Assembly: GCF_030013205.1 (NCBI RefSeq)
Contig: NZ_CP122648.1
Reading direction: 5' to 3' (one strand)
Origin: Escherichia coli
GTDB lineage: Bacteria > Pseudomonadota > Gammaproteobacteria > Enterobacterales > Enterobacteriaceae
Length of the DNA: 64,000 nt
Made by a program: the position numbers. Within the stretch, counting starts at the first letter, position 1; the number at the start of each line of letters is the position of its first letter. Of the stretch, positions 1 to 12,000 are shown one piece after another.

Positions 1-3000
1 TTGTTTGTGAGTACGACCATCCTGCACACACATCAGGCGAATTTCGTTTGCCCATGCTGTCCAGTTCGGTTCTTTGGGACGAACCACCTCGCCGTCACAT
101 TCGGCGGCCTGCTCGTACAGGGCGATGATTTTTTTCCAGAGCCACTGTGCGCAGGTCAAATCATCCTGCGTTCCCCACTGGCGCTTTTTAGGGCTGAATA
201 CAACCGCATCAGGATGGCGAGTTAAAAACTCCTGTTCAGCCGTTTGCGTGTCCGGTTGCGAAGCGTCCGGACGAGAAGAGGTTTTATTCTCTGTAGTAAT
301 CTCTGTTGTATTCTCTGTAAGATCATTGGGCCATTTTGACCCGATGACAGCGTGTCGTTTTGAACCAATGGATCGTGTCATTTTGCGCCCATCCATCAGG
401 TCACTTTGACCCGATGGAGAAGTGCATTTTGACCTGATGGATTCGTTCACTTTGACCTCTTCTAAAAGCTCACTTTCATAGTTGATCGTGTAGAAGTTGG
501 TCATGTCACGCTTCGATTTATTGAGTTGCTCGCGACGCAAAACCCCAAGTGATTTCAGGCTTGCAAATGTGCGTTTCAGAGTGGACTCTGACCAGAACGG
601 AAACTGCTCCAGCCACTGTTCTGTCGTGTTATAAACCCAGCGAATTCCGCCATGCTCAGTGCCTGAATTCGTTTCATTCAGCCAGTAATGAAGCTGCTGC
701 AACACAATTGCCTCATTCAGACCAATACGGCATGCAAGATCACGATTTATCACAATGGGCTGGGATGTCATTAACAGGCTCATGACCGACCTCTATTTCC
801 CTGAATTTACGACGAAACTGTTCGAGCGGACTGAAGCATTCATGTTCATAGCCTTCACGGAGGTAGATAACCCGTTGTGTTTCCGGCTCCCAACGAATGA
901 CTCTGACGGGCACTCCGTAGTGATCTTTGAACCAGCGGTTAACTTGTCGCAAAGGACTGTCTCCTTCTGCCGGTTGAAATCACCCACAGCCCACTCTGCA
1001 AAGCTGTGGGTTACAATTTCCCTGTCACCTGGTACATTCACTGCATAGCAATACTCCACCTTCGCTTTTCCACCCGGTACAGGAAGCGCAATCAGTTGCG
1101 AGCGACGGTAGTGTGTTGTTAAACTGTTCATGCGTTAGTTTCTCCACAACCAGAAGCAATCGACGCCACGACGCCCGGAGCTGCACACTCGCGGGCGTTA
1201 CTCTTTTCCGGCGCACAAAAAACACGAAATAACAGTGTTAAATGCTCCTGCCACTTCGCCATTACTTGGTAGCTGTTCTCTTCGATTTGCTCACGCTCAG
1301 CCTGGTCAATAACTCCATCAGCAGTTGCCTTGCGTAAGTACTGGGAATGCTTGCCAATCCATTCTATTGACTCCATCAGCCGCTGATTAATGTCACCATT
1401 GTCAATGTCATCAATGACCACCAGCGGCACAAACACCCCATTACTACGACGGGCTATTGCATCTGTTACATGCCTGGTACCACTGGCATCCTGTAAAACC
1501 ATGGCCCACTCAAGTGGAAAAATTTGATCCCCACCGCTACGCAGTCTGTTATGCAATTGATCTTTTGCTGGGGTGATATCATCAGATTTATACAAACCAA
1601 GAATTTCTGCTGCTTCCTCATAGCCATGAGGTAAATCAGCAATCGTTCTTCGTATTGCTGCCACCAGCCATGCTGGTTGTTTATCAACTTTCCATTCAGG
1701 TTCTTTACCCACGGTTAATTCCTCATTTCTGTGGTGTTTTTATGCCGCAGCACTGTTAGTCTTTTGATATAAAGACACGTCAACTTTCAGTTTCCCGTTA
1801 GTAATTTTTTCTAACTGGTACGCTCGGCCTTCAGGAATAATCTCAGGCCACTCTGAAACAGACGGATGCTTAATACCTAGGGCTTCGGCGGTTTTACAAA
1901 CTCCGCCGAAATAATTAATCACGTCGGATTTCCGCATTTCTGTCTCCCGTTAAATTACGTCAAGCAGGAATGTAGGATATCCAACATGCCAATGTCAAGA
2001 ATCCTACATTGGCATGTGGTAGGATTGCCTACATGATGAACATGAGTGATCGTATTCGCCAAAGGCGAAAAGAACTGAACCTGACACAACAAGCACTGGC
2101 TGATTTGACTGGTGTGAACCGTGTCACGGTTACTGGATGGGAAAAGGACGACTACCAACCAAATGGAGCCAACCTTCAAGCCCTAGCCAACGCACTTAAA
2201 TGCGATCCTCTGTGGCTTGTTAGCGGAAAAGGCTCGCCTGAACCAAAGATAAATCTAAAACCTGAAATATTCGCAGTTAAAAAAGTCCCCCTCATCTCGT
2301 GGGTTCAGGCGGGTTCATGGACAATGACGGAGCCTGGTGTCAGGAAAGAAGATGCTGAAGAGTGGGTTTATACTACCGCCCTTGTATCAGAAATGGCATT
2401 TGCACTACGGGTCCGTGGTGATTCAATGACCAATCCCCTCGGCTCACCATCGATACCAGAAGGTTCTATCGTTATCGTAGAGCCAGATATTATTGATACA
2501 GAGTGTATTAACGGAAAAATCGTTGTTGCCCATATCAATGGTGGGCAAGAAGCGACACTCAAAAAATTTGTTGAGGACTGGCCGAACAGGTATCTCGTCC
2601 CACTAAATCCTAACTATAAAACTATTGAATGCGGTGAGAACTGCAGAATAGTTGGTCTTGTCAAACAAGTAATAATGGATTTTTGACACATCTTCCTCAC
2701 TATCGCAAAACCGGGGTATCCCCGGTTTTTTTATGAGCCTATCTTTTTATGTAGGATAACCAACATAAACTCTTGACACCTACATGTTGGATATCCTACA
2801 TTTGTTTTTAGAGTTGTGGTGAATGCGCAGGCTGATGCGCGAAAGACATTGCAGCTATTGCGGAAAAGAGCTGTTCGGCGGGGCAATTAAACGCCCGTGA
2901 GAGTCTGAAATAACCGCAAGCCGGAGATCAGCACCGGTCACCACAACAGCCACTGCTTTGGCGGTACCAGTTTGTACACTTGCTTCCGGCTGGTACCGCT

Positions 3001-9000: not shown

Positions 9001-12000
9001 GGCTTACGAGAATTGCCAGGATTGTGCCACTCTGGACAAACGCTTTCTAAATGCGTCATGTTTGCGAGATCAAATCGGTTCATATGCCCATACAGAGAAT
9101 AGATTTCATCTAAAATCCGGATATCTGCACGGCTCAACTCATCAAAGACCTCGTCTGCATCCATTTCCCTCGGATCTGAACGCAACAACACATCATGCCC
9201 GTTCGTCTCTATCAGGTTGTACCAGTAGTCACCAATACCTTCAGCCTTACCACGAATCAAGTTCAGCGTATTCGACATGACTGGACCAAATTTCATAGAG
9301 TAAAGGCTATCTTCGCCGATCATCCTGCCATGCTTCAAAATCGACTTGCGGTTAGACAGATAGAGCAGCTTCATCAATTTCAGATATGCCATGCGCCCAC
9401 CTCGCTTAAGAAGTAGGTATGCAGCCATTTGAGCTACTTTTTCTTCGCAAAACATATAAGAAACCTCAAAGATAGTGAACTTTGTAATTATTCTCGATAC
9501 TTCATGGGTTGCTTCATCACCAACATGAGCTTCTTATGGTGTGCCCACTTAGGCCTAAGCAACTAGTTACCTTGTTTGTCAAGTTTATAGCTGGCTTTAA
9601 TCATGGTCAATTGAAGTGATGAGCAAATGATGCTTTCTAAGAATAACAGGTTCCCAATAGGCTCCCACAAAGTGTATAACTAGTTGTTTTTCAAAAACGG
9701 TACATCCTATCGAGCATTGGTGCAACGCTAAACCGACCACTCCAGTGAACGTCAGTTTTTTCAGGCATTGCGCTGGTTTGGTTGATTTTTTGCATTTCAG
9801 AATTACCGTGCATTTTCAAATGTAGAGATTATTTTATCGATATATCATGGGGTTATGTTATTCAGCATCACTGTTCAGGAGGCTCAATAGCGGGGTACTA
9901 TACCATAACAACAGGAAGCGCCTGTCTCATTGCAAAAGAAAATTGAGATCCTCTCAAGGCATGAAGCTCTCACGAAGTGATGGAAATAATCTTATTAGCC
10001 GTTAGCTTTGTTAAGGCCAATGATAAACAATCCAGGTTCGACGATAAATAAAAATCACACATTAAACTCCGGTGATATCTCTCCCTGCTAATAGCACTGA
10101 TAGAGAAAAAAAGAACCCAATAAGCATTGGGTTCTTTTATGTAATACCTTCCATACCATCGAAGAACTTCACATATTATTTTTCTAGTTCAATACCAAAT
10201 AGATCATAAATTGAATTAGAGATATCGTTTGGAATTTGAATCAATTCCGTTGAATCTGGGTCACACGATTGTACGAAGTCATTTAATTTCTGCGCCGCAC
10301 CATGCATTTTTGTAACGTCTTTTAGGACTCGTTTTCCTTCGTCTTCCTGACGTTTCATATCAGTTACAATGTCATTGAAATCCAGTTTCCCTGCGACTGC
10401 CAGATTTTTCATCTCCTTCAGATTTTTTTTCATCTCTTGTTGAGATAACGTTTTCACCTGATCTGTTATGTATTTTTCGCAATACTCATCAATATCCACT
10501 GCAGCTACCAGATCTGCTAATGCACTACCATATGAACATGAAATTAAAAGGGAAGCCAAGGGTTTTAAGCGAATATCGTCATATTGATGATATGCATTTT
10601 CTAAATTTATAAAACCATCACCTAAAGTTTGTAGATGTAACGAAGCTATAGATTCATCATCAATAGATTTTTCATAAAATAGTTGAATAGTTGATGGGAG
10701 TCCATTCGGGCTTGCTACATCAAAAGTACATCTGTCTATGAGACTTACTGTCTGATGTTCTACTTTATTACAGACAAAACTAATCGCATAATGAAAAATC
10801 GCCCTGTCTACATATAAAGCGATATAATCACGATCGCCTAATTGCTCTTGAGAGCAGTCATCAATACACTTATCGACCCACAGTTTGAGTTCATTTATTC
10901 TGCTGATTAACGACACATTTTTGATACTTGCTGTCCATAAATTAAGGGTGATTTTTTGAATAAATAAATCTATTTTTGCAATAATCACATCGCGATTATT
11001 CGCAGTTGCATAATCAACCGATTTATTATATATATCCTTTATTTTTTCTTTGCTCGCATCTTTAATTTCGTATTGATTTGAATGGAGTGTATTATTGAAG
11101 AATTCTGTTGCACTTGAAATTATACCTGACATGATTCATCCACCTTTTTTGTCGTACCGTGTCCTCCTTATAATTCTTTTGCCATCTGCTCACTATCAAA
11201 AATCGCTCATAATCTCTGAAGTACAGGTATGCGATCAAACCCAGCTAAATAAATAGCGATTTAACTTGAAGCAATTTATTTAAAAATGAATTATTAATTA
11301 TTATCGTGTTGATAATGGTACTACCAGGCAAAACAACACATTACGTACAAAACAGAAAATCAACATTACGGCAACAATAAGGGTTCTCGGTGTTTTTCCT
11401 GGAACATGGTAAAGTAAGGACATTCTTAACCCCCACTTTGAGGTGCCCGATGGAAAAGACCACAACGCAGGAGTTATTAGCGCAGGCTGAAAAAATCTGT
11501 GCGCAGCGTAATGTGCGCCTGACTCCACAGCGCCTGGAAGTGTTGCGCCTGATGAGTCTGCAGGATGGCGCTATCAGCGCTTATGATCTGCTTGATTTGC
11601 TGCGCGAAGCTGAACCGCAAGCCAAGCCGCCAACGGTTTATCGCGCGCTGGATTTTCTGCTTGAGCAAGGTTTTGTGCATAAGGTGGAATCCACCAACAG
11701 TTATGTGCTCTGTCATCTGTTCGACCAGCCCACTCATACTTCAGCCATGTTTATTTGCGATCGCTGCGGCGCAGTGAAAGAAGAGTGTGCAGAAGGCGTG
11801 GAAGACATTATGCATACGCTGGCGGCAAAAATGGGGTTTGCCCTGCGGCATAATGTGATTGAAGCACATGGGCTCTGTGCGGCATGTGTGGAAGTGGAAG
11901 CGTGTCGTCATCCTGAACAGTGCCAGCATGATCACTCTGTGCAGGTGAAAAAGAAACCGCGTTAAGAGGGCGTACATCCTTGTACACGTCGGGCAGGAGG

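Follow-up and report, generated by a model that had tools for sequence, protein, structure and literature searches.

A lambdoid prophage in dusA of Escherichia coli with its integrase and PrtN-family excision factor placed at opposite ends

More than 200 mobile elements have been described in which an integrase gene lies beside the 5' end of dusA, the gene for a tRNA-dihydrouridine synthase, the elements also having 21-bp repeats that are semi-conserved, and a dusA start that replaces the original one (Farrugia et al. 2015, PMC4482086). Of 94 such dusA islands, 60 contained a prtN homologue, and in the E. coli islands int adjoins dusA and prtN is listed third when the genes are counted from the far end (PMC4482086, Table S1). 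For one element of this type, IMEVchUSA3, the PF11112 protein RdfN was necessary, and together with Int sufficient, for excision, and in dusA elements the phage attachment site, attP, separates int from rdfN (PMC8409611). The Stx2 phage Phi1720a-02 inserts 100 bp inside dusA, provides a dusA start that is in frame and has a conserved core inside TCCAGTCGAGCATGGGAGC; formation of attP depends on its Int, and its induction by mitomycin C partly requires RecA, attP production being eight-fold lower in a recA mutant (PMC6328086). A split layout of the genes for integrase and excision factor is also known from KplE1 (CPS-53), HK620 and Sf6, where the two proteins are IntS and TorI (PMC2951348, PMC3509656). 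Here we compare with these systems a stretch of 64,000 nucleotides from E. coli (contig NZ_CP122648.1 of assembly GCF_030013205.1; the window hereafter), whose first 9.7 kb, judging from the sequence, are the right-hand end of a lambdoid prophage of the mEp460 and Phi1720a-02 type, inserted about 100 bp inside dusA.

The original prediction for this window described a prophage that ends with an excisionase-like gene and lacks an integrase where lambda would have one, and it offered as explanations an integrase at the other end, a degraded or satellite-like element, or replacement of int by a Panacea module. We are highly confident that the prophage belongs to the dusA-specific family, that its attP lies between rdfN and int, and that int is found at the far end. 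This arrangement is already known, since it has been described and experimentally supported in dusA-specific elements. The finding is mainly a correction: the puzzle dissolves once the phage family is recognised, and in a family with attP between the two genes a prophage end that has an excisionase-like gene and no int is a sign neither of decay nor of a new type of element.

The comparison rests largely on a matching record, that of E. coli ETEC4079, which was found by searching the complete E. coli genomes with positions 7800-11500 of the window (100% match) and of which the corresponding stretch is called L001. Positions 1-12629 of the window are identical to it, base for base. Beyond 12629 the two are colinear, as judged by the ends of open reading frames (ORFs) against the annotation and not by BLAST: all ORFs of at least 260 amino acids share the annotated ends of housekeeping genes at a constant offset of 12528. 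No integrase is encoded in the 64 kb, the sole recombinase annotated in the part beyond 12629 being an IS1 transposase, and ARAGORN detected no tRNA or tmRNA in the window, so that on both points the original prediction was correct. A tRNA gene as the integration target was rejected, as none occurs in the window and the only tRNA of the prophage is internal and lies outside it. This is a tRNA-Gly (L001 30074-30148), and the prophage also carries an AraC-family regulator and a lipopolysaccharide heptose phosphatase as cargo. According to ORF listing and base composition, phage genes extend from position 1 to about 9.5 kb and are followed by a DUF2713 gene of low G+C content, zur, yjbJ, dinF and lexA. 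In E. coli the zur-yjbJ-dinF-lexA neighbourhood normally runs on into dusA; dusA is absent from this neighbourhood in the window.

The prophage end was located by aligning four sites: the int-side junction, the junction in the window, attP of mEp460 as read from its linear virion genome, and the empty dusA site of strain YL3. The relation among them is directly observed. The 8-bp core TCGAGCAT is the only stretch that is identical in attL, attR, attP and the bacterial site attB, with mismatches on both flanks, and it is therefore the crossover region (the int-side junction is called attL here, as in lambda, KplE1 and PMC6328086; the labels are reversed in PMC8409611). The core covers the dusA codons M-L-D and falls inside the attB published for Phi1720a-02, TCCAGTCGAGCATGGGAGC (PMC6328086). 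It also opens a 107-bp imperfect direct repeat, with copies at 9710-9816 of the window and at L001 13877-13983 that are identical at 89 of 107 positions (83%, BLAST); the copy in the window consists of an orphaned dusA start, annotated in the ETEC4079 record as a partial tRNA-dihydrouridine synthase, plus positions 9814-9816. In genomes whose site is empty, the alignment with the window starts exactly at 9710. When the window-side arm, the core and the int-side arm are joined in silico, as excision would join them, the predicted attP and that of mEp460 agree at 98.2% in a gap-free alignment of 1385 bp that spans the junction, and the predicted attB, made of the two chromosomal halves, matches the YL3 empty site at 99.6% over 2667 bp, again gap-free.

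With the junction at 9710-9717, the prophage ends at about 9717 and not at 9455, where the original prediction had placed its end, some 260 bp short. An att site, of which none had been recognised, is present there with its direct repeat, and what had been taken for a spacer behind a toxin-antitoxin-like module comprises the 254-bp phage arm and, after it, the displaced start of dusA on the minus strand. For annotation, the true prophage boundary is marked by the dusA fragment at 9709-9813 and not by the last gene that looks phage-like. The orphaned dusA start is adjoined by the DUF2713 gene (10176-11132, the yjbL/yjbM region of K-12), which has a G+C content of 34-36% and shows 81-87% identity between strains, as compared to about 99% for neighbouring genes.

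The record of phage Lys8385Vzw (MT225100.1) was considered as a source of attP and rejected in favour of mEp460, as the core is written twice in this 'circular' record. The tandem duplicate, TCGAGCATTCGAGCAT, is located at L003 5801-5816, which suggests that the two ends of an integrated prophage were joined to make the record, and that no true circle was sequenced.

In ETEC4079 the prophage reaches 32.7 kb leftward from the junction in the window, and its other end carries a gene for a tyrosine recombinase of 365 amino acids (L001 14069-15166; PF00589, E=1e-20), as one of the suggestions of the original prediction had it. A spacer of 88 bp separates this gene from an intact dusA of 345 codons (L001 12943-13980), the two being divergently oriented. 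The 5' end of this dusA is the second copy of the 107-bp repeat, supplied by the phage: the rebuilt DusA starts with MHDNHETQKINQTSVMPEKTGVYWNSRFSIAPMLD and the native protein with MHGNSEMQKINQTSAMPEKTDVHWSGRFSVAPMLD, the replacement start is in frame and of equal length, and both genes measure 1038 bp. With attP between rdfN and int, integration sends the two genes to opposite prophage ends, and the placement of int and prtN observed here is the one listed for E. coli islands in Table S1 of PMC4482086. The lambda-based premise that int follows xis is inapplicable to the dusA family, where the two genes have attP between them (PMC8409611). The element, for which the window had been described as lacking an integrase, att site or tRNA, is flanked by an integrase and by direct-repeat att sites, and this was the very observation that the original prediction had named as speaking against it.

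The junction between int and dusA is common, being present in 727 of 5426 complete E. coli genomes. The rdfN-side junction was found in 208 genomes at a coverage of at least 80%, a count that is not comparable with the former, because in other dusA prophages the shared part of the phage arm is limited to its last 60 bp or so (9649-9709), beside the core.

These observations bear on the possibility that the element is a decayed remnant which lost its integrase and att site, became fixed in the chromosome and retains the PrtN-like gene as a leftover. Such a history would agree with the degraded state of the prophage in the identical genome, where truncations affect the terminase and tape-measure genes and the head genes are absent, and with the frameshift in yfdP. 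Yet the integrase has its full length and shares 98.6-100% identity with integrases of complete phage records, including that of the virion-derived mEp460 (98.6%) and that of the experimentally studied Phi1720a-02 (99.7%); both junctions and the core are intact, attP and attB can be reconstructed exactly, and rdfN is intact and 97% identical to the mEp460 gene. We consider a decayed remnant very unlikely.

The prophage is indeed degraded, but only in head and tail genes that lie outside the window, and int, rdfN and both junctions are intact. It measures about 32.7 kb in ETEC4079 as compared to 44.5 kb for mEp460, and a truncated gene for the terminase large subunit abuts a truncated tape-measure gene, the head genes being missing. 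The genes for replication, immunity, antiterminator Q, holin, endolysin, tail-tip protein J and tail fibre are retained and colinear with mEp460, and the prophage is therefore a deletion derivative and not a satellite. The idea of a degraded or satellite-like element was accordingly right as to the truncations and the loss of head genes; degradation is not the reason why int is absent from the window, and with tail and lysis genes of its own the element is no satellite. For a helper-dependent satellite with a reduced recombination module one might still cite the absent head genes and the stand-alone excision factor at the element's end. Apart from the retained and colinear modules, however, a truncated gene stands at each edge of the missing block, which speaks for a deletion, and the set of int, rdfN and att is complete, so that a satellite is extremely improbable. 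The defects fall in L001 15473-26952, outside the window, where fragments of capsid and head-fibre genes also occur.

The excisionase- or PrtN-like gene with a terminator that the original prediction had placed at 7899-8207 was confirmed. It is named rdfN here, for recombination directionality factor, has 93 codons, or up to 102 when the alternative GTG start at 7899 is used, and begins 9-36 nucleotides past the exonuclease stop. The protein covers positions 1-73 of the 74 in the PF11112 profile and also matches PHROG 1300, 'excisionase' (E=1e-39); its accession is the same as in strain SM107. Identity is 97% to the mEp460 gene over 93 amino acids, 55% to the equivalent in Yersinia phage YeP1 and 40% to a homologue in SMHB1, and NCBIfam gave nothing useful for rdfN or for the cargo genes. 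The functions ascribed to integrase and RdfN follow from homology and from the papers on relatives. The hairpin directly after rdfN is the strongest terminator in the region. The order beyond it is not that of lambda: the terminator is followed by three cargo genes on the opposite strand and by the att junction, with int across attP.

The same order recurs in related phages. In mEp460 the sequence is exonuclease, 'excisionase' of the PrtN family, two cargo genes, attP, integrase and dinI, and YeP1 has this order without cargo, its integrase being 68.6% and its PrtN-like protein 55% identical to those described here. The P2-like Salinivibrio phage SMHB1 has a dusA-type integrase (L006 450-1514), 56% identical to the one described here, and an RdfN homologue (L006 4829-5092) on the same side of att, in the early operon. 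The pairing of Int and RdfN is therefore shared by unrelated phage backbones, and the split layout is not universal.

The module between rdfN and attP is the subject of another explanation, namely that a Panacea toxin-antitoxin module displaced an int that once followed the excisionase gene in lambda fashion. The Panacea-domain gene at 8883-9455 is real, as the original prediction had proposed, and the module directly follows the excisionase-like gene, at the place where the lambda order predicts int. But Lys8385Vzw has the same three cargo genes (57, 139 and 190 amino acids) between its PrtN gene and attP and also has int across attP, int is present in the ETEC4079 genome, and the slot varies among relatives that all keep rdfN, att and int: in mEp460 and SM107 it holds the 57-residue ORF and an unrelated 177-residue gene, in GCEC19 a different Panacea pair, and in YeP1 it is empty. 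The probability that int was displaced is practically negligible, and the Panacea/MazF-like pair and the 57-residue ORF are variable cargo, with no role in recombination. The slot corresponds to 8254-9455 in the window, and to L002 4758-5661, L008 656-1559 and L009 633-1681 in the comparison stretches.

The 57-residue ORF is found beside rdfN also in mEp460, Lys8385Vzw and SM107, whatever cargo adjoins it, and it converges on the shared terminator at 8211-8235. The start of the 139-residue partner overlaps the stop of the co-oriented Panacea gene by 4 nucleotides (ATGA, 8883-8886). The partner has no match in Pfam, NCBIfam or PADLOC, and 62 homologues in the protein database, those with a named source coming from Enterobacterales, Vibrio and Shewanella. 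Its AlphaFold2 model has a predicted local distance difference test score (pLDDT) of 88.9, and the top 50 PDB matches are all of MazF type, though weak, with E values of about 1e-2 and template modelling (TM) scores of 0.43-0.62. As modelled, the protein fits the MazF-like class of Panacea partners (PMC8832971) and is a putative toxin. Its invariant residues include H21, H23, C26, D55, C58 and H65, a set of His, Cys and Asp that is atypical of MazF; the RefSeq version of the protein is shorter, at 128 amino acids. A defence function of the cargo was considered and rejected, as PADLOC gave no match for any of the three cargo proteins, nor for gp23 of mEp460. The slot is of minor interest as a variable site beside attP that holds toxin-antitoxin-like pairs, among them one with a MazF-like partner family for which Pfam has no model.

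The rdfN-side arm contains two direct copies of GG(T/C)TCCCA, at 9649-9656 and 9660-9667, that is 43-61 bp from the core, and it is exactly at 9649 that the alignment of other E. coli dusA prophages with the window starts. In attP as a whole there are five copies of GG(T/C)TCCC(A), the int side contributing two direct copies and an inverted one within the 88-bp spacer between dusA and int (L001 14016-14052). The attP of YeP1 (L005 3740-3985) has the same number, spacing and orientation of repeats and the same core, TCGAGCAT, with a different motif: GGTTCCCA in the E. coli phages and CAGCACCCC in the Yersinia phage. The arm motif thus appears to change with the integrase, whereas layout and core are constant. 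The GGTTCCCA repeats are good candidates for arm-binding sites of the integrase, a case that is built on their clustering, on the mirrored layout in attP and on the parallel layout in YeP1, and not on the motif count. The int-side sites would overlap the likely promoter of int, as in KplE1.

The course of integration, and a plausible course of excision, can be pieced together from these elements. The integrase recombines phage and chromosome within the core TCGAGCAT; the phage brings along a 107-bp look-alike of the dusA start with a promoter, by which dusA is rebuilt in frame at the int end, and the original 35 codons are left orphaned at 9709-9813. As to excision, DNA damage would lead to self-cleavage of the S24-type cI repressor. 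The loss of cI would free the pL-like promoter (2773-2802), whose 18-bp operators are those that also guard pR, so that the early-left operon is transcribed through rdfN, its last gene. RdfN would then bind the rdfN-side arm and steer the integrase, which would occupy the core and probably also the GGTTCCCA repeats of the arms, toward excision.

The part of this scheme that concerns expression is based on the immunity region and the early-left operon. In agreement with the original prediction, Pfam identifies cI, a P22-type Cro and a CII-like protein. The 18-bp palindrome ATGTAGGATATCCAACAT occurs in four copies, two at the cro-side promoter and two at the pL-like site just after the cI terminator; both promoter-like sites have the identical hexamers TTGACA and TACATT, and a 32-nucleotide inverted repeat, I1, ties the two regions together with 88% complementarity. 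The four operators and two promoter-like sites probably represent pR and pL of the phage immunity region. From the pL-like site to rdfN, which comes last, the genes are on one strand and closely packed. The operator-flanked pL-like site, the packed genes and the terminator after rdfN lead us to infer that rdfN is probably expressed only once cI has been cleaved after DNA damage.

More generally, the balance tips slightly toward the view that in lambdoid dusA phages excision is switched on only via the supply of RdfN from a cI-repressed, SOS-inducible operon, with int limiting itself, as in KplE1, from its own promoter embedded among the three arm-type sites of the 88-bp spacer, and with an arm motif that changes with the integrase as positions and core stay constant. 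If this were true, the RdfN-supply switch would answer a question left open in PMC8409611, namely what drives rdfN expression in prophage-like dusA elements. The predicted arm sites, the cI-controlled position of rdfN and the variable cargo slot are minor points that may be of use.

Several points weigh against these proposals and have to be set beside them. The presence of int in the strain from which the window derives is read from a public genome on the strength of its identity to the window. GGYTCCCA is found 4 times in the window as compared to 3.4 expected and is not rarer than chance, binding of integrase to the GGTTCCCA repeats is a prediction from sequence only, and that pL transcription would reach rdfN is likewise deduced from the arrangement of the genes. 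With head genes missing, excision may occur without phage production. RdfN of this phage is connected to the tested Vibrio RdfN through their common Pfam family. Finally, the best PDB match of the RdfN model is weak: it is 4lhf, a phage P2 DNA-binding protein which we take to be P2 Cox (E=0.08, TM 0.43-0.49). The model itself (AlphaFold2, pLDDT 90.8, from an alignment of 5 sequences) appears to be of the winged-helix type; it also resembles 2kvv, a putative Klebsiella excisionase (TM 0.42-0.48), and the rest of its PDB matches are for the most part generic winged-helix regulators, along with small ribosomal proteins. A PDB sequence search with RdfN gave no match, even at E=10. The modelled structure is consistent with an excisionase, though not decisive.

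The features identified in the prophage part of the window are collected in Table 1. The gene order of the early-left operon is the same in phage mEp460, and the O-like replication gene, cut by the window edge, is complete at L001 36663-37655. Within the operon, positions 6565-7317 form one intact ORF of 250 amino acids, equal in length to gp27 of mEp460 (753 bp), which RefSeq presents as two features, a DUF551 pseudogene labelled 'partial' and a short DUF551 gene.

Table 1 Features of the prophage end and its junction, in window coordinates
Feature	Position	Strand	Evidence
Replication initiator (O-like), N-terminal part; gene runs off left window edge	1-783	-	PHROG 391 'replication initiation O-like', E=1e-101
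CII-like / YmfL regulator	1128-1712	-	PF06892, E=1e-6; annotated YmfL family
Cro, P22-type	1740-1937	-	P22_Cro PF14549, E=8e-22
pR-like rightward early promoter with two 18-bp operators (1970-1987, 2017-2034)	1969-2034; -35 to -10 at 1998..1969	-	Promoter scan and repeat family D1
cI-type repressor, helix-turn-helix and LexA-like S24 self-cleaving peptidase domain	2033-2686	+	PF01381, E=1e-15; PF00717, E=4e-25
pL-like leftward early promoter, TTGACA-18-TACATT at 2773-2802, with two operators (2749-2766, 2784-2801)	2749-2802	+	Promoter scan and repeats
Early-left operon: yfdP (frameshifted), yfdQ, yfdR, small ORFs, ead/Ea22-like, DUF551, 3'-5' exonuclease	2958-7889	+	ETEC4079 annotation; PF16473, PF04448
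3'-5' exonuclease	7314-7889	+	Pfam
rdfN (PrtN-family recombination directionality factor, 93 amino acids)	7926-8207	+	PF11112, E=3e-23, profile positions 1-73 of 74
Hairpin terminator between converging rdfN and cargo genes	8211-8235		11-bp stem, 5 G-C pairs; T-run better on minus strand
57-residue conserved phage ORF	8254-8427	-	PHROG 2741 (function unassigned), E=8e-36
Putative toxin partner of Panacea protein, 139 amino acids, MazF/PemK-like fold	8467-8886	-	AlphaFold2 and PDB structure matches
Panacea-domain (PanA-type) antitoxin gene, 190 amino acids	8883-9455	-	PF13274, E=2e-18
Phage arm of att, rdfN side, 254 bp	9456-9709		Contiguous with int-side arm in virion phage mEp460
Orphaned native dusA 5' end, 35 codons, MHGNSEMQKINQTSAMPEKTDVHWSGRFSVAPMLD	9709-9813	-	Translation and BLAST of both junctions
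att core TCGAGCAT	9710-9717		Four-site alignment; empty sites align from exactly 9710

Two observations concern the chromosomal part of the window. Within 42130-43713, an IS1 copy (42356-43053) interrupts a gene for an oxidoreductase of the short-chain dehydrogenase/reductase family at the head of a sorbose-type phosphotransferase system operon, and two genes of type III secretion effector families, SopA and EspL4 (19170-20750 and 55638-57824), are located among core genes, beside ubiC and between iclR and aceK, respectively.

The closest known systems are the dusA-specific phages mEp460 and Phi1720a-02, with which the prophage shares insertion about 100 bp into dusA, int beside dusA, imperfect repeats around the core, a replacement start and prtN near the far end. 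This copy differs from them in lacking head genes and some tail genes and in carrying the Panacea/MazF-like pair, and in nothing essential. The RdfN of IMEVchUSA3 is likewise a small PF11112 protein that is encoded across attP from int and is the partner of a dusA-specific integrase (PMC8409611). The likeness is at the level of the Pfam family, and the gene described here, unlike that one, is the last of an early-left phage operon, with control by cI proposed from the operators. The cargo pair resembles PanA-PanT in that a Panacea gene lies directly upstream of an overlapping small partner, in its MazF/PemK-like class and in its location in a prophage, whereas its partner, a putative toxin, belongs to a family without a Pfam model and is outside the ten characterised pairs of Table 1 in PMC8832971 (nine verified there, one earlier).

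A similar distribution of functions exists in KplE1, HK620 and Sf6, in which int and the excision factor gene are also at opposite ends, the int promoter is inside an att arm, and yfdP, yfdQ and yfdR are present. The 88-bp spacer between dusA and int with its three arm-type repeats, and rdfN at the opposite end, reproduce this layout; the likeness is one of layout and not of family, as KplE1 and its relatives use the argW tRNA as target, have a different integrase, and encode a TorI that is not annotated as PrtN-family. With lambda the prophage shares a tyrosine integrase and a small DNA-bending excision factor that would be made from an early-left promoter after loss of the repressor. In lambda, however, the neighbouring genes xis and int overlap and are transcribed together, and attP lies beyond int, whereas here attP separates the two genes.

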